Shown here: positions 5,547-63,339 of the stretch, piece by piece
Layout: every line of letters starts with the position of its first letter
How positions within the stretch are numbered: the stretch's first letter is position 1
DNA from: Eledone cirrhosa
Lineage: Eukaryota
Direction of reading: 5' to 3'
NCBI GenBank assembly: GCA_964016885.1
Contig: OZ024741.1
Location: 194,556,001 to 194,620,000 of the forward strand
Length of the DNA stretch: 64,000 nucleotides
Translations under genes and position numbers: made by a program
The notes under the pieces: model-generated
What the model was told of the DNA's origin: nothing
Seen by the model: only the letters and a program-made list of their open reading frames with translations
Databases searched by the model: none

Positions 5547-33178
<27,632 letters not shown>

Positions 33179-35629: not shown

Positions 35630-35735
35630 TGTCAGACTTGACACGACGAGGATGCCACGTACCGACTCCCAGCAGGCAGTGCGTAAAAGGAAGAGTTCAT
35701 TTCCGGTTATGTCCGATAACAATTTTTAAGTCTAT
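35630..35735. promoter_or_regulatory. Putative compact bidirectional promoter (Sec23 / SelL)
   Basis: Divergent gene starts, CpG-containing patch, ETS-type TTCCGG at 35701-35706. Confidence 0.45.
35663..35700 (-). other. SEC23: Putative non-coding first exon of Sec23
   Basis: The first coding exon begins at a splice acceptor, so an upstream UTR exon is required. A good donor TCG/GTACGT sits at 35662 in a CpG-containing patch. The start position is a guess. Confidence 0.4.
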
Positions 35736-35862
35736 ATGTCATCCCGTGTAACTGGATCAAATCTTCTTGTTTGCACTGAAAATATTTCTGCTATTTTTGT
35801 AGAATTTCTAAAGAATGGTAAAACAATTCTCGATAATGGAGTTGCAGAGTTTAGCCGCAAAG
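35736..35862 (+). CDS. SELENOL: SelL exon 1 (MSSRVTGSNLL...AEFSRK)
   Basis: ATG, open frame, donor AAG/GTAAGC, phase 1. Confidence 0.8.
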
Positions 35863-38800
35863 GTAAGCTACACGTTTGATGTTGTTCAACTACAGGTAAT
35901 CTCCGTTGCTAGGTGTTAGTGCTCTGGGGGTGGGGGTGGACTTCAGAACACTATGGGTGGGCACTATAATTTTCAATATAATTGTTTCTACTTTTGGCAC
36001 AAGGCCAGCAAATACCCAGTGTATGGCACTACCATGCTATTAGCTGTCAGAAGTGAAAGTTTCGTCAACCTTCTCAATCGTAAACATCGTTTATTTCCGT
36101 ATTACCACGCGTTATTTTAATAAAGCATATCGATGTAAGTGGAGTTACTTAAATGGGCCAAATTAGAAAACAAGTCATGGTTATCAAATAAATTGGATTT
36201 AATTATTTATATTTTCATAGTCATGGTTATCAATTTCATGTATAGGGTTGGTGAAAAAAATTTGATTACCATATATTTGTTGTCTAATTTGGCCCTTTTA
36301 AGGGCCACCTATATTTTCATTTAAGTTAACTCCACTGTTGGTGAAAATGATATTAGCTGTCAGAAGCAATTCCACTGTTGGTGGAAATGACTTGTTTTCT
36401 ACATTAATAACCATGACTATGAAAATATAAATGATTAAATCCAATTTATTTGATAATCATGACTTGTTTTCTAATTTGGCCCTTTTAAGGGCCACCTATA
36501 TTTTCATTAAGTAACTCTACTTACATCGATATGCTTTATTAAAATAACGCGTGGTAATACGGAAATAAAATGTTTACGATTGAGAAGGTTGACGAAACTT
36601 TCACTTCTGGCATGGTAGTGCCCAGTGTATTACTGGTACTTTATTTTATCGACCCCATAAGGATGAAAGGCAAAGTTAACCTCGACGGGATTTGAACTCA
36701 GAATGGCAAGGGCCGTAACTCTATGCGTCAAAGCATGACGTCCGACCCTCTACCGATACTGCCAATAATACTCAATAAACATCACTGTAATTTTTTTCTA
36801 AATCTGAAGGTGTACCTTTGAAAAGTGTGTGTGTGTTAGAAGGTTGACTCGAAGGCCAGGTCTGTGATTGGGGCTTATAAGGAGCACCAAGCCAACGAGG
36901 GAGGGACCGCGATGGAAGGGAAGAACTCTGCGAACAGGTCGATCAGCTGTTGGTGTTGAGAAGCCGGGTGGTTGAGGATCCAGAGCTCACATTTGGAGCT
37001 ATTGATCTGGAGACACCGGCGGCCAAGCTCCTCCACGATCCTGTTGGCAGTGGCGAGAATCATATCCGGAGTTCCCCTCAAACAGGCGTCGTCGAGGTAC
37101 CAGACATTGAGGTCCAACTCAACCCCCATCTTGGTGACATCATCAATGCCCAGTGCAAACAGAGCAGGCTCAAGTGGGTCACCTGAGGCAGGGGTGATGA
37201 TCTGGTCACCGAAAGAGAGGTAGGAGGGCTCCCGATAAGCCTGCCAAGCAAAGTGGAAGAGTTATGGGACCCTCTCTCTTACTGAGCTGAGGACGATGTC
37301 GCGGCTGATGGAGTTGAATGCATCTTGAGGTCAAGTTTGAGGATGACTTTGGGGGACGAGGAGGGCAAGTTGGTAAATGCTCTGGTAGCGTGGACAGCAA
37401 CCTCACATCCCAACCTGGTACCCACCCCCAGATGGATGGGGGAAAATTCCTCCGCCAGTGAGTCAGAGACCAACAGCAAACACGCCTTTGCAGTGAGGCG
37501 GCGAAGAGTGCAGCCAGCTGCAATGGGGCGCAGGTCCCTGTTGGACTTGGTGAGACCAAATAGCTTCGCACCGAAGAACAGTTGGCGGATGAACGGGAGA
37601 ACGTTCACTGAAGAGAATTGATTCACAAACTGAGTCAGACTCTCCAAGAGCTCGAGTCCGGCGTCACCGGCCGATAAGGAGATACCATCCTTGAGGTGTT
37701 GAGGACGAAGGCCGTCAATTCCCGCACCTGACGCAGCGGGGAAGGATGAAATCACCTTTCTGATGACATCGGTGGTGTAAACCGGTCTCAAGTATTCTGG
37801 TGGTTTGGGCCAGTGTAGCTGATCATCCAGGGGTGCCGATGGGTGCTTCTCTTTCAGACGCTCAAGAGAATCAGAGTTGCATGGAGCAAGGGAGGACAGA
37901 GAAGAGAGGAGACTGACAGCCCCTTTAATGTCAAATTCGCTGAATTCGCTTGAGGTCTACCGGTTGTCTGCTGGTGGACACCGAACTCGGTGTCGAACTG
38001 AGATGAGACGTGGTTGGAGTGGACTCAAACAGCTGGAACTGCCGCTTGAGAGAGGACGTGAGGGAACCCGAATTCGCATTGTGCACGTGAAGAGAGATGA
38101 GGGGAAACAAAAACAATTTCTGCCAGTCAGACCTATTGTTGGATGAGCAAACGTTTTTCAGTAAATTAGAGAGGGCATGTACAAAGCTATTCCGAGCGCC
38201 CTTAGGGATCCGGTTAATGAGCTTTGATTTGGAGAAGCCCTGGAGGGCTGTGGTAAAGTCGTCGGTAGAGAGTTGGTCATCAAAGCGTGGGGCATCCCCA
38301 CAGAATACGTCTGTCAATGAATGATGTCTGAACAGACTTATGATCAAAGGTAAAGTTGACCCGTGAATGTGTGAAAATATAACAAGTTTGACGTTTTCAT
38401 TTTGCAGAAGATTTTTTTTTTTTTGACATTTGTAAATTACAATTCACAATAATAACACTAAGTACTGTAAAACTTTTACATGGATGCTCTACCGATTCCA
38501 TTAATCTCTAATTGGACATTATTAACATTTCTAGTGCTATATCTTCTTTGAAACATGTCTATATATATAATTGTGTTGAAAGGTTTTTAAATTAATATAA
38601 ACACTTTAAAACCAAGTTTTGTGTCATAGAACAAAGGACACTTTCATATATAAAGGGTTACTATAGATCAGCAGGGTCAGTAGAGTGGACGACAAAATTA
38701 TTATGATAGGTATTTATGACCCTTTTCCTTTTGAGTTGAAATCCTGTCAAGGTCAACTTTGCCTTTCATCTTTCTAGCATTTAGTTTCGACCCTCAACAT

Positions 38801-41800
38801 TTGGGATACAAATTTCCATCGAGGTAAATATGAGAACCATCGTCATTTTTACGTCCGTTTTTCCACGCTTGAATCTCTCCACCGAGTTTCAGTGATTTGA
38901 GATCAACTCTCACCACTTCTGCCTTGGCCACCTTCTACTGCAACTTCCTTCCGCTGGGATTTCTTGACACTTCTTCACCCAACGATCACCATCTTTGTGC
39001 ATCATATGTCTATACCAATGCAGTCTTCCTAAGTTAGAAATGTTATTGTCAGTCTTAATCCAGCTGACTTATAGTCAAAGGTGTTCCTGTCGGACCCACC
39101 ATGACTTATTCTCTGACATAGCTTATCTAGGGCTAGACTAATCTATATGTTTTCTTTTATTTAAGATGTTAATCATAGCTACTGCTAAAAAAAAACAGGA
39201 TGGTCTTTTTAGGGCCTGTGAACAGAGGTGACTTGGAGCTAAATTACAGCAACAACCACCATTGTTATACCAGTCATATACTTCGATTGGTTTCTTGTGT
39301 CAACATAAATTATTATCAAAATCTAGTGGATTGGCAATATTGGTTGAGTGTTGAACAAAATGTCTGACGATAGTTACATCCTTTTAAGTTCTAAATTCAA
39401 ATCTTTCAAGGATTGAGTTAACCTTTCATTCACCAAGGACCAATAATATAAGTTCCTGTAATATACTATATTCCTTTTCCTGTTCTTTCTCTGTATTTTT
39501 CTGGTGTTGTACCTATATAAGAAATTATAAGCAGTAGTTGGTAGAATTGGTAAAACAGCCAAAATATCATCATCATCCTCATTTTACATTCACTTTTCCA
39601 TGCTTGCAAGGATTGGACAGGTCCTCTCCAGCATATCCTCCCCTCCACTTACAGCATGTCTTCATATCTGTGAAGCTCAGCATTTTTAGATCAGCACTAA
39701 TCACCTTTACCCAGATCTTTCTCGGTTTTATTCTACTGCAGATCACTTACACTTGCATCACTTCTTCAACTAGCATTCCTCATATAGTATTTTATATTCA
39801 AAGCATGTCTTTTATATTCTGGGTTTAAATCCTGCTGTTGTTAATGTTTTCTATCTTGTCACTTTAAGTTAATACTAAACCTACTTTAATGTAAGTAATT
39901 GTTTTATCGAGTAAGCTTGGTGTGGTAGGAGGACCCCTTGGTACAATCAAGTGATCAAGGATACCATCTGAGCAAGAAGGAGGTCTATAACGCTAAATCT
40001 ATTCTAATGTGAGAAATTGTTTTATGGAAAAGCAGAGACAGCAAAATGCTGTAGGGTATTAGTTAAATCCCTTACATTCTTGTTCAAATCCTGCCAAAAT
40101 TCACTTTGTCTTTTATCCTTCTGAGGTCAGTAAGAGAAATATTGGTTATATATTGAAATCCAATAAAATCAATTATACTCCTTTGTGACTCCATAAAAAT
40201 AATATTCTTTATATTTTTATTTTCAGATTGTCTTGAAGACTTCCTCTCCTCAAACATGGGGAAACTGTTCTGTCTTTTCCTGGAATACAACACAATGTTT
40301 CAAAGGTGTTCAAATTTAATATTTGTAAGAATAGATCATATAGCCAGGTACAATATAATTATCAGGTAGATGAATTGAACTGCAGATTTTCTAAGGTTAA
40401 GTAAATCACTTCATAGTTAAACTACCCAAATAATACCTAACTTTCGACTTCATAGTTGTGTGGATGTAAAAAAGAATTAAAGGTTTTAAAAAAATAGTTG
40501 TCTTTAAAAAAAGGAGCCAAAAAACCCTTATTTGATTAATTGTAGCAAATGTTGAAATTTGTAAAACCATCCAATCCCTGTCACTATAAAAAAAAAAGAT
40601 ATTTGTAGTGTTGGCTCACTTCAGTTTTACAATTTAATCAACCGAGATCAGTGCAGTACTACATTGATAGAGTGCCTTTATACTCCCAATTTCAATATAA
40701 ATATATTTGACTTAATTATCGTTGAATACATCTGTCTGATGATAATTGGACTAAAATTGTATATATCGCTATGAAAGGGTTAATTATATATGTAAGGGGT
40801 AGGAAGACTCATTAGTTAACTCAAAGACATAACTTCCTTAGTGCTGGTACCCTGATAAAATGCACTCAGTAGAGCATGGGAATGTATGTAAGCAAGATGC
40901 AGGCCCTGGCCTGTCTGAACACTTGGTAGAGTGCATGAATGTATGCAAATGAAATATGAGATCACACCCCATTTGAGAGGTCAGTAGCTCTGCTTGTATA
41001 CTGACTTGGTCTATGAAGACCCATCCAACCCTTGCTAGCATGAAAGATAAGCATTAAATGATGATGATATAGATATGAAAGGTTTAAATGGATCCTAGAA
41101 AACTGCTTGTTTCATTATTTCACCCAGGTATCACCCCAACTACTTGAATCACAGGTTTTCATCATTTCACCCAGATAACACTACAACTACATGAATCACT
41201 GGTTTAGCACTGAAAGGTTATTCACCTTCAAAAAAATATTTGCCTCACAATATATAAAAGTTCAACTTAACAGCAAATGCTCCTCCTGTGCAAGTTGTTA
41301 TATAATGACCAATACAAAACTATGTAATAATAATAATTGTTGCTAATTTTTTTTTTTTTTATATTTCCCACAGTCTTGGCATTGAGAATCGAAAGGAATT
41401 GGACGGACATGTAGGAAAACACTACAGGTAAATTATCATATATTGTGAGTTATCCTTAATGGTAAGGGTCATAAATTGATGCTTTTAATTTAGGTGGTTC
41501 AAATACTGTTCGGCCTTTAGTTCTTGATCCTTTTCGTGTCAGCCCGATTAAACCACATCTGATTCTATGAAACCAAATCACCCATTTTAAAGGATTTATA
41601 TTTATATTATTATCTTCAAACATATTTTTATATAAGAACCTTTTATTACATTGTTAAAAATAATTAATAATTTTAGTAAATCCTTCCAAATTTGTCCTTA
41701 ATTAATTCAAATACAGTGTATTTCATCATAAATATGGTAACAAAAGGGTTAAAACAGTATATTTAACTGTAAATGTTGTTTTCCATTTCTTTTTGTAAAT

Positions 41801-44800
41801 GTCTGGATTTGTAGAACTATTTAACGCATGCTAACATGTAGAAATAGATAATAACATCGCTGGTAAAGGTGGCAGATTACTAGAGAATTGAATATTGGTA
41901 AAATAGGTAGAGTATTGGATATTGGTAGAATAGGTAGAGCATTGAATATTGGTAAAATAGGTAGAGTATTGGATATTGGTAGAATAGGTAGAGTATTGGA
42001 TATTGGTAGAATAGGTAGGTTATTGGATATTGGTAGAATAGGTAGAGTATTGGATATTGGTAGAATTGGTAGAGTATTGGATATTGGTGGAATAGGTAGA
42101 GTATTGGATATTGGTAAAATAGGTAGAGTATTGGATATTGGTAAAATAGGTAGAGTATTGGATATTGGTAGAATAGGTAGAGTATTGGATATTGGTAGAA
42201 TAGGTAGAGTTATTGGATATTGGTAGAATAGGTAGGTTATTGGATATTGGTAGAATAGGTAGGTTATTGGATATTGGTAGAATAGGTAGAGTATTGGATA
42301 TTGGTAGAATAGGTAGAGCATTGGATATTGGTGGAATAGGTAGAGTATTGGATATTGGTAAAATAGGTAGAGCATTGGATATTGGTAAAATAGGTAGAGT
42401 ATTGGATATTGGTAGAATAGGTAGAGTATTGGATATTGGTGGAATAGGTAGAGTATTGGATATTGGTGGAATAGGTAGAGTATTGGATATTGGTAGAATA
42501 GGTAGAGTTATTGGATATTGGTAGAATATGTAGAGTATTGGATATTGGTAGAATATGTAGAGTTATTGGATATTGGTAGAATATGTAGAGTATTGGATAT
42601 TGGTAGAATAGGTAGGTTATTGGATATTGGTAGAATAGGTAGAGTATTGGATATTGGTAAAATAGGTAGAGTATTGGATATTGGTAGAATAGGTAGAGCA
42701 TTGGATATTGGTGGAATAGGTAGAGCATTGGATATTGGTAAAATAGGTAGAGTATTGGATATTGGTAGAATAGGTAGAGTATTGGATATTGGTAGAATAG
42801 GTAGGTTATTGGATATTGGTGGAATAGGTAGAGTATTGGATATTGGTAAAATAGGTAGAGTATTGGATATTGGTAGAATAGGTAGAGTATTGGATATTGG
42901 TAGAATAGGTAGGTTATTGGATATTGGTGGAATAGGTAGAGTATTGGATATTGGTAAAATAGGTAGAGTATTGGATATTGGTAAAATAGGTAGAGTATTG
43001 GATATTGGTAGAATAGGTAGAGTATTGGATATTGGTAAAATAGGTAGAGTATTGGATATTGGTAGAATAGGTAGAGTATTGGATATTGGTAGAATAGGTA
43101 GAGTATTGGATATTGGTGAAATAGGTAGAGTATTGGATATTGGTGGAATAGGTAGAGCATTGGATATTGGTAGAATAGGTAGAGTTATTGGATATTGGTA
43201 GAATTGGTAGAGCATTGGATAAAATATGCAATTGCAGTATTTGTTCTGGCTCTTTACATTCTGAGTTTAAACCACATCAAAGTCACCCTTTGCTTTTCAT
43301 ATTTCTGGGGTCAATAAAATAAAGTTCCAACCAAGTACCTTGGTGGATTTAGTCAACTTTACTCATCACCCAAATGGTCTTGTGCATAAAGTAGAAATCA
43401 ATATTATTAATGATAGATGTAGCTACTCAATACTGATGTTAAAACATTGGTTAGTTGTTGGAAATTTAAAGAATAGTTAATTTTGATACTAAAGTGGCTC
43501 TCCTTGTTACCCTCTAACACTTAGTGGAATTCCTTGGTACTCACTAACACAGGTACTCTAATACACCACAACATCCCCTTCACTACATCAATATACTACA
43601 ACACCCTCCATTACACTCCGTCCACAACACTACAACATCTTACACTACAATTTGATATAGCAACTTTTGTTATAACAAATGTGAAATAGTAAATTTTAAG
43701 TTTTTTCATTTAACATCATTCTGTTTTTGTATGTTTTAGACAATCTGTTATAAAAGACTTGGCAGATAATCTCACTGAATTTGAGGTAATTAATGACCTT
43801 TTATTTTGTCATCAATATAATCATGTCATCATCATCATTATTATCAATATAAGCACCACATGTCATCTTTGTTTAGTATATATTTTCCATGCTTGCATAA
43901 GTTACACGTCTGCGCAGGCGCAAAAGGAAGTTGACAATCCACTACCCCAAACTCACCAACAACTAGCCTAGGCAAGTCCCTCCCCCTCCTCCAACTAAAC
44001 GATCACCCCATCCAGGCTGGTAATATGGCACGGTTAAAGTATATTGCAGTTTTTCTCTGCCAGTGGCAGCTGACCGAAGTCTAGTGGTGGTGACAGAGTA
44101 TGAGTTTCAATAGGCCTTAATACTACACCTAATTTATGCCTGGACAATAGAGTTGACCAATATCTGCTAAGAGAATATATAAACTTATTTCTAGATATTA
44201 TGGTTTCACAGTGGAAATTAAGATTGAAAATTAGAAATTAAAAGTTAAAATCCTAATAGAAGTGATTAAAAATATAAAAAAATATATATATAAAAAGTAA
44301 ATAGGGAGATTAAAGTAAGAAGTTTTGAAAAGGGGTCAATATTGGATACTACAGATATATTATCAATATATTGAACGATAGTACCGTACAGTAGAACAGA
44401 AAATTATAGAAGAAATTTTGAAAAAGGGGATCAATATTGGATATTACAGATATACCATTCATATATTGAACAATAGTACTATACACTAGAATGGAAGATA
44501 AATTAAAGTATGAAGTGTAGTAATTAGGCAAACAATTAGTTAATATCTTCTACCATATGAATCAAAACAAAAGGTACATAGATGCAAAATGAGCGAGGAG
44601 ACATATATGAGAAAGATAAACATGTATATCAGTATGGAAACGAAGGTAGAAGTGGTGGAAATGCTTGTCAATTTGACCATGTAAAGTGCATATAAAAATT
44701 GTTATTGGATGAAGCGAGGAGGCCTACGTCCGAGGTCCCTGTGCAAAATGCAAGTTGTTGCAGGAAAATAAGGGGTTTTACGTTGCTTTCGTGTCCGCTT

Positions 44801-47800
44801 ATTTATCTGGTTGAAAGTTTGTTTATAATTTTAAGTTCATCCAGTAGTAGGGATATCCATGGTAGAGGGAATTTCTGGGTGTAGCTGATGGCTGTTGCCT
44901 TCACTTCTTCACTATATTGGTTATACCACAAAGTGCTCAACGTTTTAGGAGCAAAATTCTTACGGTAAATATTGATGGAATTCAATTCAAGCACTCATGT
45001 ATTTTTTCACATAGGAAAACGTAGTATATATATGTGGAGGCATGTGGCCTAGTGGTAAGAGTGTTGGACTTACAATCATAATGTTGTGGGTTCGATTCCT
45101 GGGCTGCATGTTGTTTTCTTGAGCAAAACACTTCATTTCACGTTGCTCCAGTATACTCAGCTGAAAATGAGTACCAGCAATAGCTGGAGGTTTAACCCTG
45201 CGATGGACTGGCGTCCTGTCCAGGGGGGTGTCTTGTACTCTGTCGCTTCACGGCATGAAACCGGGATAAGCACCGGCCAAATGAGCCTTCTGGCTTAAGA
45301 CAGACTTTAGACTTTTTAATATATATATATATATATATATAAGCACCCAGCACACAACTGTCAATGTAGTTGGCGTTAAGAAGGGCATTCAGCCGTAGAA
45401 AACCAGCCAGAAACACTCCTATATGAGCGAGACACAGTCACCTGACCCAACTTGCCTCTAAATGGGACAAACCTGTCTAACCCATGCTAGTGTGGAAGAT
45501 AAACGTTAATCGATGATCATGATGAAGTATATATCTTGTTTTGTATCCTCTTCCAGGCAGAATGGGATCAGTTTATAGACACTATTGATGCTGCTGTAAA
45601 ATGTGGATTACATGAGAAACTTAAATTACTTGAGGTTGGTGATTATTTGCCCCTGCAACTAACAGTCATTGTTGTACAACATGGAAATCCTGTTACCCTG
45701 GACAAATTACTCCCAGCGTTCACCTCCCCCTATTTACTACTTGTTTTCCAACGCCATTTTGGATGACTGCCCTGACGTAAACATGTAATGGAGCTTGAAA
45801 CTTGTATGGTAAGCTTTATATTTTTTCTTCTCTGCACTAATCCTATTTTATTTTTGTTTGACTTTCTTTCCTTCTGTAAATAATTGTCTTTAGAAATTTT
45901 CTGTAACTACTTTTGTAAATAAAATTTGGTTTTATATATATACAAACATATACCTACAAATAGTTTTACATTCTGAATGTGGTGAGCTGAAAAAAACTTC
46001 AATCAACTGAAACTATCCTTGCAATTTCAAGGTGGTTGTTCTTTTTTCTTCTTTTTTTCTTCTTTGTTTCTTCTTCTACTTATTCCTAGGAGGGCCATGG
46101 AAGCAGAGACCTCAAACACTCCTTCCAGCAGGTCCTGTCAGAAGCAACCATTTCTAACTGATCCTCCTGGATCCCTAAGCGAAACCAGCCGAGGTCATAG
46201 ATGTTATCCAACCATCTTGCTTGGTGTCAACCTCTGGGTCTCCTGCCAGTTGGTTTTGCTCATAAAATCTGTCCAACAATTCTTTCCTGAGACATTCTAA
46301 CCACATGCCCATAGTACCGGAGCTGTGACCAATCAATTTGGAGAAATAGCAGCTCTATCTGGAGTGACTCTCTGATCTCCGGAAATGTGAATTTCAAGGT
46401 TGGTACTCATTAGAAGTGTCCAAATGATGAGAAACAACAAAAGAAGGGAGAGGACTCCTATAGCCCAAGCTTGTCTAAGTCTTTTGGAACAATTTAAGAC
46501 AATGCAGTGGAAGTGGACCTTATTTAGAAGCCTGCTTGATAAAAACAATAGATATGTTTGACCTTATTAAATCTCACCAAATATTCACTTAGCAAGGTAG
46601 GGTAAACAACATGTTTAGTATGAAATGTGGCATATAAGTAGATGACTTGTATATATTCCTACTGGCAATGTTTATAATCCAAGTGATGTCACTTTAGTTC
46701 AACTGTTTATATATGTAAGATAAAGCAGCAATAATAATTTTTTAGTAGGTAATTTATCTACTAAGGCAGTGAATTGGCAATCATTAGAACATTGAATGGA
46801 ATACTTTGTGGTATATGTTCTGGCTTTCTGTGCTCTTTCAAATCCTGCTGAGATCAATAAATAAAGAATCAGTCCAATACTAAGGTCAATTCTTCCTCTA
46901 TATCTCTTTCTCACTTTCTCTCCTCTTTTCTGAAAGAAATCGTCAGTGTTCTGACCTGGAGAGGGATGGGCTCCGTCAGGTTTTAAATACCCAAGAAACA
47001 CTATATCACTACTGGTGTTGTGGATCCATATAATACAAAAATGTATCTATTATATTTAATTTCTTTTATTTGAAATTTATGATTGTTCAATACCCACCTA
47101 GTAAAACTGAATATCTGTCCAGATTTTAAACAACAGAATACTAGCTCATTCCATTGCACAGATGGTTCTATAGAAATAGTGGACACCTTCCGTTACTTGG
47201 GTGACAAAATCAGCAGTGGTGGAGGGTGCTCTGAAAGTACAGTAGCTAGAGTCAGAACTGGAGGGAAAAAGTTCAGAGAGCATATACCACTATTAGCCGC
47301 TAAAGGGTTCTCTCTAAAAATGAAAGGCAGGCTGTATGATGCCTGCATACGAACAGCAATGTTACATGGCAGTGAGACCTGGGCATTGTGTGCAGAGGAT
47401 ATACGCAGACTGGAGAGGAACAAAGCTTGCATGCTCCGCTGGATGTGTAATAGTAATATACGTGAACGGAAAAGCATAAACGAACTAAGGGAAAAATTAG
47501 AAATAAGAGGGATCAGATTTTGTTTACTCGAGAGAAGACTACGTTGGTATGGTCACGTGATGCGCATGAAAGACGACAGCTGTATAAAAAAGTGCAGGGC
47601 AATAAAAATAGACGGTAGCCACGGAGTAGGCAGACCCAGAAAAACCTGGTAATACAGAAGACCCGCCTTACCTAAATACAAAGTAAAACCTACTACAGTC
47701 AGTAGGCACCTCTAACAAAATACGCCCCCGTCCCACTACCCCCACCCCATCCATATCACCCCTTTCAATGTAAAGTTATGTTGGTACCACAACATCCAGT

Positions 47801-50800
47801 CCGAAACAAATGAGGTCGTGTAGGTGTCACGACAAAAAAAACACACAGTCCACGCTGTAATGTGGCCGTGTAGGTAACACAGTAAAAACTTCCCAGTCCA
47901 CACTGTAAACGTGGTTGGTGTTAGGAAGGGCATCCAGCCTTAAAAAACCCGCCAGACAGTCCTATGCGAGCAAGACAACCACTCTTGCCACAAGTGGGAA
48001 AACTCCCGTCCAAACCCATGCAAGCATGGAAGATGGACGTTAAACGATGATGATGATGATGATGATTAAGAAGTTGCTTGATGAAATATATTTAGAGTAT
48101 GTAACAAATATATCTAAAATGAGAGGAATTTATATCAGAATTTATACCTTTCATGATTATTTTTTTTAATGAAATACACATTATTTCAATTAATTAATGA
48201 AGAATTTTGAGTTATTTACTAAATATTATTTCATTACTAATATAGGAACTGAACATATTGTTATTACATAAAATTATGCTGGAAGATTTTAATCTAAAAT
48301 GGTTGGTTTTGTTTCATTGAATCAGAGTTGATTTTGGCTGGGTTGGTATGAAATGGTTTAAGTTTCTATTATTCTCTTTCTTCAATTTCCACATATAATC
48401 ATGTATAAGTTGCACCTTATACATAAAACATCTATAATGTACCATATATATTGTACTGACATTTTGTAGGTCCTGTAAATAAATCACATGCTGGTTTTCA
48501 CCTGGAAAATGTGCAGCTTACACATGCGTATATTTTAACAACTAAAACACCCATACAAATTCATTCTATTTTCCAGTCAGAGCTGAAATCTTCAGGTTGT
48601 GAAGTTATACTTGTTTTTTTTGGACCATTGGAGTCTGTGAAAAAATGGTTGATAGAAACTAAATCTTCCTTTCCTGCTCTTCAAGATTCTTCAAAAAATG
48701 TAAGAATTATATTTTAAAATATTTTTCAGAAATGTTTAATTCTGGTTATTAGCATTTTGTACTAATTTCATAAAACATTTAGCAAATTCATGCATGCACA
48801 TACATGCATACATAGTCATCACATTTTAATGTGACTTGATAGTGTTTAATTTGAATATTTATATTCAAATTTAACACTAGCAAGTCACATTAAATATATC
48901 ACTTAAATTTATGTTCATCATAACATTTTAACTGCTGTTTGTGTGTTAATTAATGGATCTCAGATGTAGCACATAAAGAAACTATGCAATATTTACCACA
49001 AGTTATCTTGTGGGGTATTTAGATGTTTTTCTGACTATTCACCTCACCAGCTGCTGTTGAATTAAAGACAATTCAAATCACTATGGTATATATAGCCATT
49101 GTTGGCATCATGAGTGGTTGGTGTATAAATCAGCTGGAAACAAAGGAAATATATGCATAAGTATATATATATGTATATATGTCAAACAAAGGGTTGGGAG
49201 GACCCTTCAGTTGTGTCACTGACATGACAACCTCCCTAATGCCAGTACATGCTGTAAAGTGGTTGGTGATAGGAAGAGCATCCAGCCTTAGAAAGCTTGC
49301 CAAACAAAGGATTGGGAGGACCCTCCAGTTGTGTCAAAGACATGACAACCTCTCTCGTGCTAGTGCCACAATAAAATGGGAAGTCAGTATCCCCACATCA
49401 GTATTGACTCGATCTGTGAAGCCCCATCCAACCCTTGATAGCAGGGAAAGTGGATACTAAATGATAATTGATATATATATATATAGAGAGAGAGAGAATT
49501 AAAATTTAGCTTTAACATAACTGTATACACATGTATGTGAATTTCGTATGTCTAAAGATATATGGTATGTTTAATAAACAAACATTTTGAAAGCCAAGCT
49601 ATGAGTATTGAAATGCTGACGGCCGTGCCCGCTAACGGATGCCAGCAGAAGCAGCAAGGGATAACTGCCTATATGTATTTCAAACTTAATGATTCTCATC
49701 GGGACAGTTCTGCCTTCTGTTGAAACTTGAAAACAGGCGAGAATATATAATATTTTCGCCTGTATAGGTGGCCTGATGAGTTTTTTCGTTTTTCTATGAA
49801 TTCAAATATACTCTCACTTCATCTCGATCAGGGACAACAATGTTTACTCATTTAACTTTATCATAGCTCTATGCATGTGTGAGTGCCTATGTGTTTCCTT
49901 TGTATTCTTTAAATTCCTCCAATAAAGGAAAATCTAGCCTCTAGAAGAAAGCATTTTCTCATTAATATGCATGCATTGTTTTATCACTTAACCCTTTTAT
50001 TACCATATTTCTGATAAAAATATGCTGTGTTTGAATTCATTAGTGAAGAATTTGGAGAGATTTACTAAAATTGTTTAAATTATTATGATGGTACATAAGA
50101 AAAATGTTTTTATGTAAAATTATGTCGAATGGTTTTAATTTAAATAAGAATCTTTTTAAAGTGGGTGGTTTGTTTCATAGAACCAGAGGTGGTTTTGATT
50201 TAGTTGGTATGACAAGAGTTAATCAGGAGGAATGACAGTATCTGTGATCCTTTAGGGATCTCCAAGACTTTATAAAGGAAGGAGGGAGTTATCCTTAAAC
50301 CAGAGACCTGGCCCAAATGCATGCAACTGAGTGTGCACTGCTAAAGGGCTTCAAGGGTCAAGTGTTGATGGCGTGAGACCACATAAGTAGTCCATACTAG
50401 GATTTGAACTCATAATAAAGTACTGGGACAGATATCGCAAAGCATTATATCAGACTCTCTAATTCCTCTACCAATTCACCATATACACAAATTTGTGTGT
50501 GTGTCTGCCTTACAGCTATTCATAACTGAATGTTTTTTGGTTCTTTTTTTCCAGCTTTACTCAACACTTGGATTAAGTAGATCTGTCAAGAAAGTAAGAT
50601 ATTTATAATACATATATATAACCCTCACCACACTCATATATATCTCCTTAATTCAAATTCTTTTCCCACTGTGCCTGTATTATCATCAGTGTGTCTACTT
50701 GTCTATTTTCTATACTCACTTGGAGTTAGATGAGCTATCTCCTTTGTGAAATCAGCTTTTACCACTGTTGATCATGTCTTCCTCGATCAAACCTACCATA

Positions 50801-53800
50801 TCTCCCTTCAACCTGAACATCACATAATCTCATTGATCTATCAATTCGATCAACAAGATCCCAGACCTCATTTACTTACCAAGTGAGGTGGAACTCGTCA
50901 AATTGGACCAAGGAAACAATTTTTCCATTGGTCTTTCCATGGCTGATACTATCTACTGATCGCAATGCATAATGCATCGCCCAGTCTCTGGAATCAAACA
51001 CACACCTTCATGATTGTGAATTCAATTCTCTAACCATTAAGCCAAATCTATGGCTTCATAATTCCTTAACCACTAAGCTTCAAATCTATAGCTTCATAAT
51101 TCTGTAAGAAATTCTTGTATGTCCCACTTACAAATGTAGTGTATCCTAAACACAAGTATATGTATTATATATTTATATATGTGTATTTTGTATATCTAAT
51201 GATATACAGTATGTTTATGGATAAACATTTGAAGGTCTTAATTTGAATTTTGGAAGCTGATACCTAACGCCATCTAGCGAATTCTAGCAGAAGCAAGTGA
51301 GGATAACTATTGACAATTGTTTCTGTCTGGTGGCTGTTATCAAGATAGTGCTCCCCCTACCTTGCTCTCTATATATATGCATAGAAGGAAGCAACACCTA
51401 GTGGTATCTAGTATGTACCACTTCTCACCTCCGCCCACATCTTAACACACCTACACCCACGTGTTAACACTCCACCCTTCACTAGCTAAGTACCTTACAC
51501 TACATACACACCTCTGTGCAGGGGGTTTGGGCTGGTGACATGACAAATAACTACCCAGTCTACCCTGTATGGTGGTCATGTTGGTGACACAACAGCAGGC
51601 ACCTAGTCTACCCTGTACATGGTCATGTGGTTTGGGGAGTGGTCGGGTTGGTGCCATGACAAAGAGTACTCTGTCTGCCCTGTAAGGTGGTCGTGTTGGG
51701 GACACAACAAAAGCACCCAGTTCATTTTGTAGGGTGGTTGTGATAATAACATGACAATAAAAGTCCAGCCCACCCTGTAAAGTGGTGGTGATGTTGACAT
51801 GACAAAAGCACCCAGCCCAGCATTGGTGACAAGACAAAAGAACTCCCAGCCCAACCATGATGACCTGGCCCACCCTGCAAGTGGTAATTTTGGAGACATG
51901 AAAAAATGCACCCAGTCCACACTGTAAAGTTGGCTACACCATACCTTGCTCATACCTGGAGCCAACCACATTTACTGTGTGGAACAGGCTGGTACCATTA
52001 TGAAGTAAGTCTGGCCAGTTGTCTGTGCTGTACCCTGCTTGTAGTGGAACCATGGAACTGGGTGAGTCCATTTTGAAGTAGGTCTGGCCAGTTAGCTACG
52101 TTGTACCCTGCTTGTAGTGAAACCATGGAACTGGGTGGTTCCATTATGAGATAGGCCTGGCCAGTTGGCTACATTGTACCCTGCTCATAGGGGAAGCATA
52201 TTATGGGAGCTGGGTGGGCATGTTATGAGGGAGGTATGGCCAGTTGGCTGCACTGGGACCTGTGTTGCTATCTGCTTATGAATTGTTGGACCAAATTTTT
52301 AATGTGTATATGTTTGTTTACAGGTGTATTGTATAGAGACCATTCAATATTATGCTGCTCAGAAGGCTTCTCATGTTGCTCTCCCAACTCCATACAAAGG
52401 TTTCAATGAAGATACTTACCAAGTAGGAATATTTTAGTATAAAATTACTCATTTTTATTTAAATTATCTTTCCTAGGGAAACAAAACCGGATGATTTATT
52501 ATGAAATTCGCAACTTTTATAATATCTTTCATCACAAATATAACATTAAATTTAAAAGCAGAAGTCAAAAGATCATCATCATCATCATCATCAGGTTTAG
52601 CGTCCGTGTTCCACGCTTGCATGGGTTTGGACGGGGGTTTTCCCACTTGAGGCAAGAGTGGTTGTCTTGCTCGCATAGGACTGTCTGGCGGGTTTTCTAC
52701 AGTTGGATGCCCTTCCTAACACCAACCACATTTGGGCCAGGTCTCTGGTTTAAAGATGACTTTAAATATTAGATGTGACCATTTCATAAATCCACAAGTA
52801 AATTTCTTCTCAATTTCTGGAATTGCATAACAAGAGGTGGTGGATATATTTTTTTATGTTTAACAAACTCAACATTTACACACACATTCACAAGACTTGT
52901 ACAGATACATAACTTACAAATATCTTGTACTTATTCATAACCTACACTTACTTTGTGCTAACTCAACATAGACTTATACCTTATACTAACATACAATTCA
53001 CACACACACACACACACACACACTTTATGCTGATACATAGTTCCTATTCAAACTATTTCATTTCTTCTTTCTTCCTAGATGGGTGGTGATTTCATCATTG
53101 ACCAAACTGGAAAGATTTTGTTTACCTATCGCAGTCAAACTCCAAGTGATCGACCTTCTGTTGACCAAATTCTAGGAACCTTAAAAGTTTGTAAACTTCA
53201 GTTGTGTTGACAATCTCTGTAGTATTGTAAACATTTATCAGATTGTTTAAAACCATTTGACCAGTGCCATCAATAATGACAGCAATAGCATTGAATGTTT
53301 TCAAGTTTTGGAATCTGGGATTGTACCATATATCCATATATACTAGGATTACTGGAAATATAAACAATCATACAAACTGGGAAATTTATAGTTTGCATAA
53401 GAGAAACCCTATAGTTTAGGTTGATTATTGACATGCGGAAGATTAAAAATAAGAATGATATTTTCGTAATATATTTCTAGGATATAATTACAGAAATGTT
53501 TAACATATAAGTACAATGACATGCAGGATTAAATGTATGAATGACTTTGGAGAAATAACTAATCACTAAGTCAAATGTTAGGTCAGAACCCAGGACCTTG
53601 TGATTGGAAAGCGAACTTCTTATTGTAACACAAGTGAGATAAGAAATGCCTTGTATGTGTATGTGTGCGTAAATTGTGAAGAGTTACAGATATATATATA
53701 AACACACACACACACACCACACCACACCGCACCACACCACACCACACACACACACACACACCACACCACACCGCACCACACCACACCACACACACACACA

Positions 53801-56800
53801 CACACACACATAGTAATAATAAATTTGAAGACTAAAATCCAAAGAGGGCTTGATAAGGATAAATATATATCAAATGTATAAGAACCGTAGAGCAAATATT
53901 TATATAGGCTAGGAATCCAAGGAATCGTTTCAGTTGTTGTTTGTTTGTTGGGATTGAGTAGTCTAGTAGGGTTTTGATGCGTTCCTTATCGGGTTTCTTT
54001 ACTCCGTTCTGAATGTTATAACCTAGTATAGATATACTCGTTTGGCAGATTTTACTCTTATCCAAGTTAAGAGTTAGGTTTTCTGTCTTCACGGCGTTTA
54101 AGAATGCTTCCACATTTCTATCATGTTCAGCTTTGGTATTTCCCGTGACTCTGACGTTGTCAATATAGGCATAGGTTTTGAGTAAGTTATATTTCTCTAT
54201 AACTTGATCCATAATTCTCTGAAAAACAGGTACAGCGTTAGTCACGTCGAAGGGTAAGCAGCAGAATTGGTAGAGTTTGTGATTAGCCTGAAATGCCGTT
54301 AGAGGTTTGTTGATTTTTCTTAAAGGTACTTGGTGATACGCTGAATTGAGGTCGAATTCTGAAAAATATTTATCCTGTGCCACTTTGTTAACAACATCCT
54401 CAATGTCGGGGGATGGATAGGCATCCAATTGTGTATACTTATTAATTGTCTGGGAGTAGTCTACCACGAGTCGAGGTTTCTTTCCGTGTACTATGAAGCA
54501 CTGAGCTCGCCAAGGTGAAATTGATTCCTCAATGATACCGGCTTCTAGGAGGCGAGTTATTTCGGACTTAGTAAAATTGTCGTCTCTCTTGTTAATGAAA
54601 CGTCCCTTAGTGGCAACCGGCTTGATATTTGTCTCGGCTAAATCGTGGAAGACAAGAGGCGGATTAACTTCTATTGTCGGAAAGCTACAGCATAGTTGAT
54701 TTGAAAATTTCATGGGAGGCCGGGCACCGCCAAGGTGGAGAATAATAGAGCTATGTTGGGTGAGGACATCCATTCCGATAATGATGTCTGCAACAAGACT
54801 TTTTGCAGTGATTAGGTTCACAGAGTATTCCTCGCTGTAGATACATATTGGTATGGATGTAGTACCAGTCGTCATTAATATTTTATTGTCGGCTAGTGTG
54901 ATTGCCCGTTTTTCTTGTTTTACGCTCAAGTTTAATTCAGTTGCTATGCTATGACGTATAAATGAATCTGTGGAACAAGGATCGATTAAGGCCTTTAGTG
55001 TGGTGTCTTTTATAGTTATCAGGCAGAGAATAGCTTTAGACTGTTTGCCGGTATTTAATGAACATATAAGTGAGGCTGCTTGCTTACTGCTTTGGCAGTC
55101 AGATTTACAGACTGATTGCCAGTGGCCGATCTTCCCACAAGAATAGCATATGTCTTTTCTAGCTGGGCATTTATTTCTAGGATGCCTAGAAAGTCCACAA
55201 AAAAAGCATTTAAATTCACTTTGGGAATTAGCATTTTTAAAGTATTTCAGAAGAGGTTGTTTTGATTTTGTAGCTGCTACGGTAGGTTCTTGAGAGGATG
55301 TAGTTGACAGTGTTGATGAATTCAGAGAGACGTCTAGGTTGAATGATTTAGTAAAATCACTGGATAGTTCTATTGCATTTGCCATTGCTATGCAGTCTTT
55401 TAGGTTTGCTTGAGTATCGTCTAGCTCTAGGAGACGTGCTCGTATAGCGTCTGATTGGACTCCTGCTACTAGTGAATCCAGGATCAACATATCTCTGTGG
55501 TCTTTAGCTGTGATGGCTTTACAGTTACATTTTTCCACTAAAAGGTTGAGTCTTTTAATAAACTCTCGGACGGTTTCTTCTTGCTTTTGGCGGCATGTTA
55601 GGAGTTGATGTCTGGCATAGAGTATACGACTGGGGGCTAAGAATTGAGTATCCAGGGTGATTAGTGCTTCGTTGAAGTTTTCTGCAGATTCGAGTAAACT
55701 AAATAGGTCGGCCCCAGCTTGTGAACGAAGGTAGGTCAATTTATGGTTGTCCTCTACTATGCCGTTTATGAGTAGGGAATCCACAAAACACTTCCGCCAC
55801 CATCGCCATTGCTCGGATGTGGGGTCATTTGGGAATGTTGGATGTGGAATTTTTAATTGAGCCATTGGTAATTGAGAATGTAGCAAGCTTTGAAGGTAGA
55901 GTAAGGGTGGAAACGAATACCACAAAACGTCTAGTCTCGGAACGAAACAATTGTAACAAATATCATATTGAATAAAATTGTTGTGCGTTCTAATATTGCA
56001 AAACTAAAGCTCCAATTCCAAGCTTTTATTCAATATCTAGAATATAAAAACAGTAATTAGTCTTGAAGAAATATAACAATAATATTTGTAAGAAAAGAAA
56101 GATATGCAATAAAACAAAGTTATATTGAGGATAGATGAACTTCATAACAATCCCGTTAAGGGTGAAAGCAGCGATTCTTTGCTTAAACTTTAATCTGTTA
56201 TTTTAATAAATATATATATATATATGAGAAACAAATGAGATCGTGTAGGTGTCTGTTATTTTAATAAATATATATATATATATATGAGAAACAAATGAGA
56301 TCGTGTAGGTGTCACGACAAAAAAACACACAGTCCACGCTGTAATGTGGCCGTGTAGGCAACACGGTAAAAACCTCCCAGACCCACACTGTAAATGTGGT
56401 TGGTGTTAGGAAGGGCATCCAACTGTAGAAAACCTGCCAGACAGTCCTAGGCGAGCAAGACAATCACTCTTGCCTCAAGTGGGACTACCCCCGTCCAAAC
56501 CCATGCAAGCAGGGAACACGGACGTTAAACGTTGATGATGATGATGATGATGATGATATATATGAAATATAAGAATCAAAGAACTGTTCAAAACATTTTT
56601 ATGCTTACAACTGTTTCCTCCAAACCGAGGTTTGGATTCTTCGGAGCAATTTATTAATGAATGAACACTTATATGACCTCCTTTTCACCCAAGAGACATA
56701 CAAATACATATGCAAATATTGTGGGTCAACATTCATTACAGCATTTAGAGTGGCAGTACACACTTAGAGATTACATTCATATTAAAAGATACAATCAAAA

Positions 56801-61131: not shown

Positions 61132-61178
<47 letters not shown>

Positions 61179-63011
61179 AACACATGGTGTATTATTAAAG
61201 TTGCTGTTTTGTTACCATAGTAATAAGAAATCATACACAACAATATTTACAGAAGGAAATCAATAAACCACAGACCCATTTCTTTAGTTCACCATGAAAT
61301 GTCGTCTCTTCTTCTTTGCCCACTTATTCCTGAGAATGTCATGAGGGCAGAGTCATCAAACACTCCTTTCAAAAACAACCATTTCCCAAGCAAGACGAGC
61401 TGAGCCTATGGATGTTATCCAACCATCTCGCCCCGAGTCTACCCCTATGTCTCCAGCCAGTTGGTTTTACCTGTCACATCTGTTCATCGATTCTTTCCTG
61501 AGACATTCTAACCACATGCTCTTAGTATCAGAGCTGTGATCTCTCAATTCAGAGAAGTAGCGGCTCTACCTGGAGTGACTTTCTGATCTCCGAGTTATGC
61601 ACTCTATTGAGTAACGTTACTCCAAAGACCCAGTTGAAGGAACCCCATTTCAACTGCTTCTATTTGCGATCATATTCTTTTGGCCATTACTCAATAGTCA
61701 TGAGCATAGGCAAGGGTTGGCATGAATACTGAATTGAAAATAGCGAGTTTGGCTTTTACACCCACCTCTCTTCTTCTGATTACTGAATGCTGAAGCTAAT
61801 GCATTACTACACCAGCTCCTACAATTCTTGCACTTAATTCAGCCTCCTGTCTTGCGTCACTCATGAACATGGACCCAAGGTATTTGAATTTCTTCACCTG
61901 CTTCAGTGGAATTCAATTTACATGAAGAGTGCACTAAGTAGGCTTGCTTGCGAGGACAAATGTCTTAGATTTCACAGCATATTTTCATTCCAGCCATGCA
62001 GCACTCAGCATTAAACCTATCAAGTGCAAGTTAAAAATCACCTTCTCTCTGAGTCCTGTGTGCCTGGTGGCCTGGATCTCTGGAAAGGCACCTAAGCAAT
62101 TGGGAGTGATAATCCCAATTTTCAAAAAGGAAGGCAAGAGAAATTCTCCAATTATAGAGGGATCTCCTTGGCAAAGTCTATGCTAAGTGTCTGGCAAAGA
62201 GATGTAGGGAGATTGTCAAGTCTAAGCTAGATGTTGAACAGTGTGATTTTTACCCTAGATACAGCACAGCCAACCAAATATTCACACTATGGTAGGTCTG
62301 TGAGAAATAGTGGGAGTACAAGAGGTGTATTCTTGCTTTGTAAACCTCGAAAAGGCATATAACGCATTTCATGGGACCTGCTGTGAAAGGTTCTGCAGGC
62401 GTATGGAATCGATGGTCTGCTTCTTGTTGCCCTGATGTTTCTATTTGAATGCCTGAGTATTTGTGTTTGGATAAATGGTGTTAAACTGAAAACATTTGAG
62501 GGTGCATACTGTCAGTGAAATGTCGATAAAGCAAATTGGTTACCTGTGCCTTAGACAAGTAGCATTTCAGAGCATCAATTAATTACAATTAAATTTCCTA
62601 TAGAAGATCAGGTATCTGTTCACAATAGAATATCTGGTACCTGGTAATAGGTCTGGTCTCTATGTCCAATACATATATAGAATAAAGCATCCTACCCAGA
62701 TACACAACACTATGTGGATTTGTTTATCTGGTAGCCCTATGTTTTATCTGCTAAACACATTATGTACAAAACATTTTCTATACTTGACATACTAAGTATT
62801 TTCTCTAATCCTTCTCCTCCAAAATTGTAACTTATTGGACCTCATTTCCTGTGGGTAGAAAATTCTGAAAAAATAATAAGTGATTGATCCTTGAGATGGG
62901 GGGGGGGGGGGGGTTCTTCGAGACCCATGAGTAGGTGAAACATTCAGAAAAATCTAGAGAAAAATGAAACCATAATAATGTTTTACAATATTTCAGGGTT
63001 TTTCTCAGTGA
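35736..63011 (+). CDS. SELENOL: Selenoprotein L (thioredoxin/AhpC-TSA-like fold, UxxU motif), 10 exons, 313 aa, Sec172 and Sec175
   Basis: join(35736-35862,40227-40305,41374-41427,43740-43785,45557-45808,48577-48699,50555-50593,52324-52422,53079-53186,62997-63011). All GT-AG with consistent phases; 942 nt. LLLVFQRHFG-U-LP-U-RKHV and QMGGDFIIDQTGKILFTYRSQTPSDRPSVDQIL match the SelL family as I recall it; SECIS follows the stop. Confidence 0.92.
35979..36766 (-). mobile_element. tRNA-derived SINE interrupted by a foldback MITE
   Basis: SINE halves rejoin across 36025-36630. Confidence 0.8.
36025..36622. mobile_element. Foldback MITE, ~200-bp TIRs starting GGCACTACCATGC, 8-bp TSD CAGTGTAT (Merlin-like termini)
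   Basis: TIRs and TSD read directly. Confidence 0.8.
36845..38360 (-). mobile_element. Frameshifted non-LTR retrotransposon RT remnant, CRE-clade-like
   Basis: GAGIDGLRPQHLKD, LRPIAAGCTLRRLTAK, LGVGTRLGCEVAVHA, KLD..AFNSISR, WYLDD; GC-rich relative to host. Confidence 0.75.
40227..40305 (+). CDS. SELENOL: SelL exon 2 (DCLEDFLSSNMGKLFCLFLEYNTMFQ)
   Basis: TTTTCAG acceptor, AAG/GT donor, phases fit. Confidence 0.85.
41374..41427 (+). CDS. SELENOL: SelL exon 3 (SLGIENRKELDGHVGKHY)
   Basis: Poly-T acceptor, CAG/GTAAAT donor. Confidence 0.85.
41888..43220. repeat. 27-bp minisatellite (TTGGATATTGGTAGAATAGGTAGAGTA) inside a SINE head
   Basis: About 49 units; continues into SINE body at 43220-43405. 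Confidence 0.95.
43740..43785 (+). CDS. SELENOL: SelL exon 4 (RQSVIKDLADNLTEFE)
   Basis: TTTTAG acceptor, GAG/GTAATT donor. Confidence 0.85.
45036..45315 (+). mobile_element. Second tRNA-derived SINE family
   Basis: TGGCCTAGTGG A box, GGTTCGATTCC B box, CTTGAGCAAAACACTT and CCCTGCGATGGACTGGCGTCCTGTCCAGGG body motifs. Confidence 0.75.
45557..45808 (+). CDS. SELENOL: SelL exon 5 with two in-frame UGA (Sec) codons at 45764-45766 and 45773-45775
   Basis: AEWDQFIDTID...RHFG TGA CTG CCC TGA CGT AAA CAT...CM/GTAAGC; 252 nt. Confidence 0.93.
47134..48065 (+). mobile_element. RTE-clade LINE 3' fragment with (GAT)n tail
   Basis: FRYLGD, LHGSETW, RRLRWYGHV, GRPRKTW. Confidence 0.9.
48577..48699 (+). 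CDS. SELENOL: SelL exon 6 (SELKSSGCEVILVFFGPLESVKKWLIETKSSFPALQDSSKN)
   Basis: 123 nt, GT-AG. Confidence 0.92.
49663..49709 (-). ncRNA. Minimal hammerhead motif (CCGATGA core)
   Basis: AACTGTC-CCGATGA-GAATcattaaGTTT-GAAAT-acat-ATA-GGCAGTT; 7-bp helix I. Confidence 0.55.
50555..50593 (+). CDS. SELENOL: SelL exon 7 (LYSTLGLSRSVKK)
   Basis: 39 nt, GT-AG; Y..LGL motif typical of the fold. Confidence 0.9.
51500..52260. repeat. Degenerate tandem arrays (~55-bp RTE-tail-like unit, then ~65-bp unit)
   Basis: Recurring AAAAGCACCCAGTCCACCCTGTAAAGTGG and GGCCAGTT..GTACCCTGCTTGTAG motifs. Confidence 0.7.
52324..52422 (+). CDS. SELENOL: SelL exon 8 (VYCIETIQYYAAQKASHVALPTPYKGFNEDTYQ)
   Basis: 99 nt, GT-AG. 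Confidence 0.88.
53079..53186 (+). CDS. SELENOL: SelL exon 9 (MGGDFIIDQTGKILFTYRSQTPSDRPSVDQILGTLK)
   Basis: 108 nt; donor AAA/GTTTGT (the same GTTTGT donor is used in Sec23). Confidence 0.9.
53832..55925 (-). pseudogene. Gypsy gag-protease-RT polyprotein, truncated within RT
   Basis: Zinc knuckles CFFCGLSRHPRNKC and CYSCGKIGHWQSVC; protease ALIDPCS; RT RLVVDY, FDLNSAYHQ, AYIDNV. Confidence 0.85.
53890..56149 (-). mobile_element. Ty3/Gypsy LTR retrotransposon, 3'-truncated; putative 5' LTR 55979-56149
   Basis: LTR TGTTATG...CACAACA with AATAAA; gag-PR-RT ORF; no RNase H, integrase or second LTR. Confidence 0.85.
56601..56649 (-). ncRNA. Hammerhead motif, copy in the left inverted pLTR
   Basis: Reverse complement of 60881-60929. 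Confidence 0.75.
56958..59309 (+). CDS. Penelope-like RT plus GIY-YIG endonuclease (783 aa, N-terminally truncated, no ATG start)
   Basis: FDINSYYTSI, FDITMGSSD, GGLYRDDAL, VNFLDITL; CNCx5CPLxxKC linker; IIYSC...TYVGST..FKIRY..H; CNLC..E..LNKKSE...CQH. Confidence 0.92.
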   Translation: MRWRTFHYDRNRSNNVNNTNKFDSFGFKTFKSPPHNTLLNSFENDLVKLVKNIKYNKHHNRSNTFLNKLNTSINGFKTSNKIIVHADKTNNIYSLDYNTYRKFIYNELHKSYKKTTLKNLEDINIEGYNIVSKLGLQRHTQPFTPNPPRFSLKDHKEDFISNPSIRLICPSKSDIGIISKKILDKIIPQIKHKIHLKQWGNTGEVIEWFKDIKNNKDKKCIQFDINSYYTSISPILLNKALIMAMNNSDLTRAQIDVTLAARKTIITFEDQLWTRKDTHNNFDITMGSSDLAQVTDLVGLYLLNEIHKDLPYLNGGLYRDDALLLIEYKKFNIERTRKLLHKTFKNFNLSITMDKNTKNVNFLDITLYLDSKIYTPFHKPNEKLIYVDTKSNHPRSILNSISKGVSNRISSLSYDANIFSKNSQYYNQALARSGHNIEIEFLPKKTHSYNMISHNMSMRKPNNRNSNHKYTKAEGATGSNHYHGNYRSALGRNNTPDTKNKNRRRNNTFFNPPFNLNVSTNIPRAFFSLRDKNFPLGHKYHNLLNKNTIKISYSTTPNLAYHIASSNKSKINSYFQQTKSQQEVNLLNTSVASDHSNGSNNRNNTSIRNNTRVDNPNVQNPIATTQTSALHYNQQTNTQDNCNCRANRTCPLDKKCLTKDIIYSCTVTTSNSSETYVGSTSNCFKIRYNSHIHSFKKHSLANSTSLSSYIHYLKTKNKPYTLKWGVIGSATSYKPPNKFCNLCILETHNIIFSNRNLLNKKSEVFATCQHRFRHSFQNFKPNI
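60460..60646 (+). mobile_element. tRNA-derived SINE inserted in the right pLTR, 13-bp TSD TATATAAACAAGA
   Basis: TSD at 60447-60459 and 60647-60659; empty site visible in the left pLTR. Confidence 0.9.
60881..60929 (+). ncRNA. Type I hammerhead ribozyme motif in the right pLTR (CCGAAGA core variant)
   Basis: TGCT-CCGAAGA-aTCCAAACCtcGGTTTGGAg-GAAAC-agtt-GTA-AGCA. Confidence 0.75.
61310..62500. mobile_element. Decayed RTE-type LINE in two inverted parts (minus 61310-61945, plus 62050-62500)
   Basis: Minus strand: KQVKKFKYLGSMF...KAKLAIFNSVF; plus strand: VIIPIFKK, LEKAY. Confidence 0.65.
62997..63011 (+). CDS. SELENOL: SelL terminal exon, coding part (GFSQ-stop), followed by 3' UTR with SECIS and AATAAA signals (63266, 63292)
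   Basis: Acceptor ATATTTCAG at 62996, phase 0 matches exon 9, SECIS immediately downstream. Confidence 0.75.
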   Translation, partial: GFSQ

Positions 63012-63013
63012 TC

Positions 63014-63094
63014 TGAAGCATGTGGTATCTATGAAGGCCCTAGATAAAAGCAGTGATACTGAAAACTTTGGCCAGAAACTTCAACACGTCTTCA
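63014..63094 (+). promoter_or_regulatory. Type II eukaryotic SECIS element
   Basis: Helix I TGAAG(C)ATGTG/CACGTCTTCA; core ATGAA(63031)/AGAA(63074); helix II GGCC..AG.T/A.CT..GGCC; apical AAAA 11 nt after ATGA; mini-stem CAGT-gat-ACTG. Confidence 0.85.
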
Positions 63095-63339
63095 AACTAA
63101 TCCTTATTGATTTGTTTTTATTTACAACTAATACTACTATCGATTTTCATATTTATGTGTAGACACACATTGTAAGTATGCATATATGCATGTTCTTACA
63201 TACATATAATTATTTTATATCACTATATTTACTCTTTCAGATTTTAATTTTTTAACTGATTTTGGAATAAAAGTTTAGCGCATTCATTGAAAATAAAGGT
63301 GTTTTTTTTAATGAAACTTATTTTGTTTTGTTGTTTTTT

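Follow-up and report, generated by a model that had tools for sequence, protein, structure and literature searches.

Exon structure and transcript evidence

The analysed window, a 64,000-nucleotide stretch of the Eledone cirrhosa genome, carries on its forward strand a gene of 10 exons that runs from 35736 to 63011 and comprises 313 codons (Table 1). All nine introns begin with GT and end with AG, and the only in-frame stops in the model are two TGA codons in exon 5 and the final one. The first-pass annotation had read exon 5 through both TGA codons to a splice donor and had continued it through further in-phase exons into a 313-residue, 10-exon model. The letters of exon 5, whose end translates as RHFG-TGA-LP-TGA-RKHVMELETCM, confirm this reading, and no additional stop was found. 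Exons 6–9 are all phase 0, and the frame is kept through the four codons of the last exon.

Table 1. Exons, motif codons and 3' elements of the predicted gene, in window coordinates.
Feature	Position	Strand	Evidence or remark
Exon 1, coding part	35736..35862	+	ATG at 35736; GT donor; 15/26 aligned residues identical to Argonauta N-terminal half
Exon 2	40227..40305	+	Weak GTGTTC donor; alignment to Argonauta protein gap-free with this donor
Exon 3	41374..41427	+	AG/GT; frame kept; 10/18 identical to Argonauta
Exon 4	43740..43785	+	AG/GT; frame kept; 7/15 identical to Argonauta
Exon 5, UxxU motif	45557..45808	+	ttccAG/GTaagc; spliced contig, 0 differences; NF040769 positions 14-49, E 9e-11
TGA, predicted Sec172	45764..45766	+	TGA here in 3/3 genome-scan loci
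TGA, predicted Sec175	45773..45775	+	TGA in L013; Cys in L014, L015
Exon 6	48577..48699	+	Joined straight to exon 5 in contig; NF040769 53-91; weak AhpC-TSA matches
Exon 7, 39 nt	50555..50593	+	39 contig letters separate exons 6 and 8; 9/13 identical to O. vulgaris
Exon 8	52324..52422	+	Contig piece; joint 52422-53079 GT..AG
Exon 9	53079..53186	+	Contig piece; NF040769 139-172, E 1e-10; 34/36 identical to O. vulgaris
Exon 10	62997..63316	+	4 codons, stop TGA 63009-63011, 3' UTR; joint 53186-62997 GT..AG; 0 differences
SECIS candidate with apical mini-stem	63014..63095	+	AUGA at 63031, AAAA after 11 nt, GA at 63075
Likely polyadenylation signal AATAAA	63292..63297	+	About 20 nt before contig end 63316; second AATAAA at 63266

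Four sequencing runs (X1–X4) contain exon 5; all belong to a single study and none is recorded as RNA. Run X1, whose library type is unrecorded, was taken as a transcript assembly from its GT-AG-joined contig alone. This contig, 1,285 nt long, is spliced from exon 5 through exon 10 with 0 differences and has both TGA codons. Exon 5 occupies contig letters 341-593 and exon 6 letters 594-717; after a gap of 39 letters, exon 8 follows at 757-855 and exon 9 from 856. The contig then joins 53186 to 62997 (GT..AG), skipping 9,810 bases, and continues to 63316. Because it spans exons 5–10, both UGA codons and the 3' UTR lie in one assembled transcript, and the UGA segment, which the first-pass annotation had asked to see retained, is not skipped. 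The 342 letters upstream of exon 5 fit the model, with a start near 35700. Of the splice junctions that had been proposed for checking, those from exon 5 to exon 10 are thus seen in one contig; those from exon 1 to exon 5 rest on the model and alignment, exons 1–4 having been placed by frame, splice sites and the Argonauta protein. Unspliced, DNA-like contigs of runs X2–X4 also cross exon 5 with 0 differences, making it unlikely that the TGA codons are assembly errors, with the proviso that all three come from a single sample and could themselves have been used to build the assembly.

Two other exon boundaries were considered and rejected. A later donor for exon 2 (40347) would force a 14-residue gap in the alignment to the Argonauta protein. 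A first model of the C-terminus, in which exon 9 was read on to a TGA at 53208-10, was abandoned since the contig splices at 53186. Retention of intron 9 (53187-53450) would add seven codons to exon 9, followed by Cys-TGA, without a SECIS. An X1 contig of 171 nt and depth 3 lies at 53280-53450 and is probably pre-mRNA.

The gene appears once in the assembly. Exon 5 has one match in the 3.0-Gb genome, and genome searches with the NF040769 profile, with exon 5 DNA and with the Argonauta half each led to the same single locus; one further weak match, on C1, had an E of 8.7. The corresponding search with PF13911 gave no matches and missed the gene itself, so it is uninformative on paralogues.

SECIS candidate and selenocysteine machinery

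A pattern scan of the 41 kb downstream of exon 9 found the AUGA at 63031, within a candidate SECIS element in exon 10. The predicted hairpin (63022-63090) has a lower helix, an open core, an upper helix based on GGCC/GGCC, an unpaired AAAA and an apical mini-stem. Rfam SECIS_1 aligns to it over the whole model, with AUGA, AAA and GA in register, but its score of 17.3 bits is below the cut-off of 35 (E 1.7 over 4,227 families; fourth of 6 matches). At the gathering score, Rfam reports no SECIS in the window. Helix II has mismatches, the 3' core is CAGAA, and the folding energy is unremarkable (z -1.57; 18 of 200 shuffles were equally stable). With a pattern-plus-helix filter, defined after the candidate had been seen, the site is the sole match on both window strands, and 1 of 1000 shuffles of the last-exon segment gives a match. 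By eye, the next 30 kb hold no SECIS-like site of matching quality. It should also be noted that a genome-wide SECIS search scored 129 of 57,266 candidates without listing the 63031 site, and that none of those scored reaches the Rfam cut-off.

The candidate lies 448 and 439 nt downstream of the two UGA codons in exon 5, and its core lies only 22 nt from the final UGA. PMC3316567 gives a minimum UGA-SECIS spacing of 51-111 nt and states that a single SECIS serves both Sec residues in selenoprotein L. The site thus qualifies, by pattern and position, as a candidate for the single SECIS of eukaryotic type: it is in the 3' UTR of the transcript that carries both UGA codons, and farther from them than the minimum spacing. 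The final UGA, at 22 nt from the SECIS core, falls below that minimum and would for this reason act as a stop.

The host genome has two copies of tRNA-Sec (77.7 bits), of which the one read has a UCA anticodon, together with six exon matches to SepSecS and a TGA inside five of nine GPx matches. The presence of tRNA-Sec(UCA), SepSecS and TGA-bearing GPx exons indicates that the animal encodes Sec machinery. Both this and the SECIS candidate in the same spliced contig go beyond the first-pass annotation.

Relatives of the protein and proposed reading of the UGA codons

NF040769 (SelL-related redox protein) was the only NCBIfam match, found in three of the four exons tested with the profile order kept (exon 5, 41.7 bits; exon 6, 14.7 bits; exon 9, 41.2 bits); exon 8 had no NCBIfam match. 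These scores are to be read against a prokaryotic model with a cut-off of 120 bits, to which the gene was compared exon by exon rather than joined; relatives that span the motif score 94-122 bits, and one of nine proteins tested passes. The UxxU motif sits within the matched stretch, at the CxxC position. Pfam found no family in exon 5 alone, and in a word-index search of exon 5 against longer proteins none of 26 candidates passed. Pfam AhpC-TSA_2 (PF13911) matches the Octopus vulgaris half at 61.1 bits. PDB sequence searches returned nothing significant, and the profile of the relatives had no solved-structure match at E 0.01, prostamide/prostaglandin F synthase appearing only at E 0.7. Taken together, the family matches point to a thioredoxin/peroxiredoxin-like domain of the SelL type. 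The N-terminal part (about 125 residues) had no Pfam match when searched with the Argonauta half and is found in full-length relatives; a partner-binding role for it would be a guess.

The closest proteins come from octopods. The model is identical at 97/132 residues (73.5%) to CAI9730810.1 of O. vulgaris, at 96/132 to UniRef100_A0A0L8FTW6 and at 88/154 (57%), gap-free over exons 1–5, to GAB1599855.1 of Argonauta hians. All three are likely orthologues, and all exons are conserved relative to octopod proteins. A tree built from the C-terminal part, with relatives that are all unnamed and include no named fish SelL, places the model beside two octopus-type proteins (100/99). Together with the 73.5% identity to O. 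vulgaris, this placement suggests an octopod as the host. A metagenome scan gave one locus, with a 35-residue match only, away from the motif.

Of the 53 protein relatives counted, none has CxxC. The motif is covered in 11 rows from 8 clusters, each with W-L-P-W; another 41 are blank at both motif columns and one is misaligned. The count leaves out P0001 and P0046 (repetitive 696-aa, chance match). Two of the W-L-P-W clusters also include forms ending at RHFA, as TGA under two codes would give, suggesting that W in these relatives stands for TGA. The Argonauta protein and Hyalella XP_018026459.1 stop just ahead of the first TGA, and the first ATG after the second TGA is where the O. vulgaris protein starts. 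At the DNA level, all three genome-scan loci have TGA at the first site; one (L013) has TGA-LP-TGA, and two actinobacterial loci of the NF040769 family (L014, L015) have Cys at the second site, making them U-x-x-C, in contrast to U-x-x-U here. Conservation of the UGA codons is direct at both sites in L013 and at the first site in L014 and L015, and indirect, by way of truncation points, in the cephalopods and the amphipod.

The SelL-like gene of L013 (L013:417-1193) has an N-terminal extension and lies on a contig titled Akkermansiaceae MAG. Its long branch in the tree lies with the eukaryote-type relatives, and the contig may be a binning contaminant.

As had been predicted for ordinary pipelines, such genes are recorded as halves around the motif. 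The three octopod records are hypothetical, AhpC/TSA-domain or uncharacterized halves without the UxxU motif, whereas the full model has it. The crustacean records P0047 (XP_018026459.1), P0022 and P0025 (Hyalella, Petrolisthes, Macrobrachium) break off before the motif, begin after it or skip it, and the same annotation fault seems to extend beyond cephalopods.

These data support the earlier proposal of a two-Sec SelL, for which NF040769 is the best family match and none of the 53 relatives has CxxC. We consider it very probable that the locus is an intact, spliced, single-copy gene in which both UGA codons are likely Sec, and that its predicted product is a selenoprotein L of 313 residues, with U-x-x-U as its redox centre and a predicted thioredoxin-like domain. 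Directly observed are the exon structure, one spliced contig that holds both UGA codons and a 3' hairpin, and the match to the SelL-related family. Following established Sec biology, the exon 10 SECIS would recruit SBP2, eEFSec and Sec-tRNA, and both UGA codons would be recoded. If the protein behaves like described SelL, its two selenols would form a reversible diselenide as a redox centre. With a maximum hydropathy of 1.35 over 19 residues, it shows no apparent membrane helix and is therefore most likely a soluble cytosolic enzyme; such an oxidoreductase might act in antioxidant defence or redox control. Where Sec insertion failed, termination would fall about 400 nt before the last junction and leave the mRNA open to nonsense-mediated decay, which would tie output to selenium supply.

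A more elaborate possibility, which we regard as very improbable, is that this first full-length cephalopod SelL is a switch. A SECIS weak for two UGA codons, possibly together with A-to-I editing of the UGA codons or of the SECIS, would then select among the full diselenide enzyme, a form with Trp, and an N-terminal product of 171 residues that is stable and has its own role.

Also very improbable is a decaying or poorly recoded SelL gene, with a SECIS not strong enough for two neighbouring UGA codons and, as main products, an N-terminal piece of 171 residues or a C-terminal one that restarts at Met180. The SECIS is imperfect and public octopod records contain exactly such halves, but octopods conserve both halves and the C-terminal piece would be without the redox centre. 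Moreover, a score below the Rfam cut-off is shared by all 129 SECIS candidates scored in this genome, yet GPx exons with TGA exist in it.

A-to-I editing is common in coleoid cephalopods, and the UGA codons could be read as Trp through such editing (UGA to UGI) or through other non-Sec read-through. W-L-P-W in 11 database relatives would fit this, but exon 5 in the spliced contig has no changed letter (although contigs drop rare variants), the W forms cluster together with others that terminate at the same position, TGA is genomic in L013, and a SECIS candidate is present. We judge this explanation to be highly unlikely.

The least credible explanation is a transcribed pseudogene, that is, a Cys-type peroxiredoxin-like gene killed by two TGY-to-TGA changes. 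While TGA is one change away from the Cys codons and the SECIS score is under the cut-off, two random nonsense changes in a CxxC gene would strike exactly both motif codons with odds of about 1e-4 (a rough count based on 139 one-step routes to stop). The 313 codons show no other lesion, none of the 53 relatives has CxxC, relatives in other lineages break at the same codon, and the part downstream of the TGA codons keeps its 73.5% identity to O. vulgaris, splicing and conservation both being retained. A Cys-type PRXL2/AhpC-TSA protein was rejected, given TGA at both motif positions and the lack of CxxC in all 53 relatives.

Selenoprotein L (SelL/SELENOL) was reportedly described from fish and aquatic invertebrates by Shchedrina et al. 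in 2007. PRXL2/SelU/AhpC-TSA_2 proteins, which have the Pfam family PF13911 in common with the C-terminal half as recorded in O. vulgaris, are known to carry CxxC or a single Sec. Compared by published descriptions, the gene reported here and the SelL of fish and aquatic invertebrates agree in having a pair of Sec codons spaced two residues apart, a single SECIS, a peroxiredoxin-like/thioredoxin-like domain and a single copy in an aquatic animal. They differ in that the host here is an octopod cephalopod and in that the SECIS is carried by a short last exon, which an intron of 9.8 kb containing two retroelements separates from exon 9. Table 1 of PMC3473315 places SelL in sponge, Trichoplax, Nematostella, Capitella and amphioxus and not in Lottia, the one mollusc in that table. 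Other sources report it in Ciona (PMC2874816) and fishes (PMC13134290, PMC3316567) and mention it for microbes and algae (PMC2398784, PMC7539508). PMC13134290 describes two nearby Sec able to form a diselenide and a peroxiredoxin-like motif in SelL. A recent preprint (bioRxiv 10.1101/2025.10.02.680026) still calls its function unknown and places SelL in a set of 130 gene families that distinguish aquatic animals from terrestrial ones. Our literature search found no paper on a cephalopod SelL; a molluscan SelL may already be in print.

As the family is already known from sponges to fish, what is new is an octopod member and not a new system; the range of the family is extended and no new mechanism is revealed. 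Proteins with a genetically encoded diselenide are very few, and SelL is among them. The locus provides a complete, transcript-backed SelL model including a SECIS candidate, and corrects the annotation of a gene that public octopod records keep only as halves without the active site.

Neighbouring sequences

Upstream of the SelL gene, a Sec23 coding exon on the minus strand (32861-33073; E 5e-37 to human Sec23A) points away from it. The pair seems to be arranged head to head, the Sec23 exon and the SelL ATG being about 2.7 kb apart. Further upstream, a 5.8S rRNA-like sequence at 24588-24722 (+; 90.9 bits) has one hairpin deleted and is probably a dispersed rDNA fragment.

Several introns contain other elements. 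Intron 1 has two histone 3' stem-loop matches above the Rfam cut-off (36286-36331 and 36473-36518), in a locally duplicated stretch, and intron 3 has a tandem array with a unit of about 20 nt (approximately 41880-43220). In intron 9, a 723-aa gag-protease-RT frame of the LTR-retrotransposon type lies on the minus strand at 53832-56003, and X1 contigs cover it with a few differences. An element at 56559-60971, which we take to be Penelope-like, encodes RT-like motifs in a frame of 794 aa (56925-59309, +) for which Pfam gives no match. The frame lies between inverted repeats (259 and 69 nt) that are nearly perfect, and the element looks recent.
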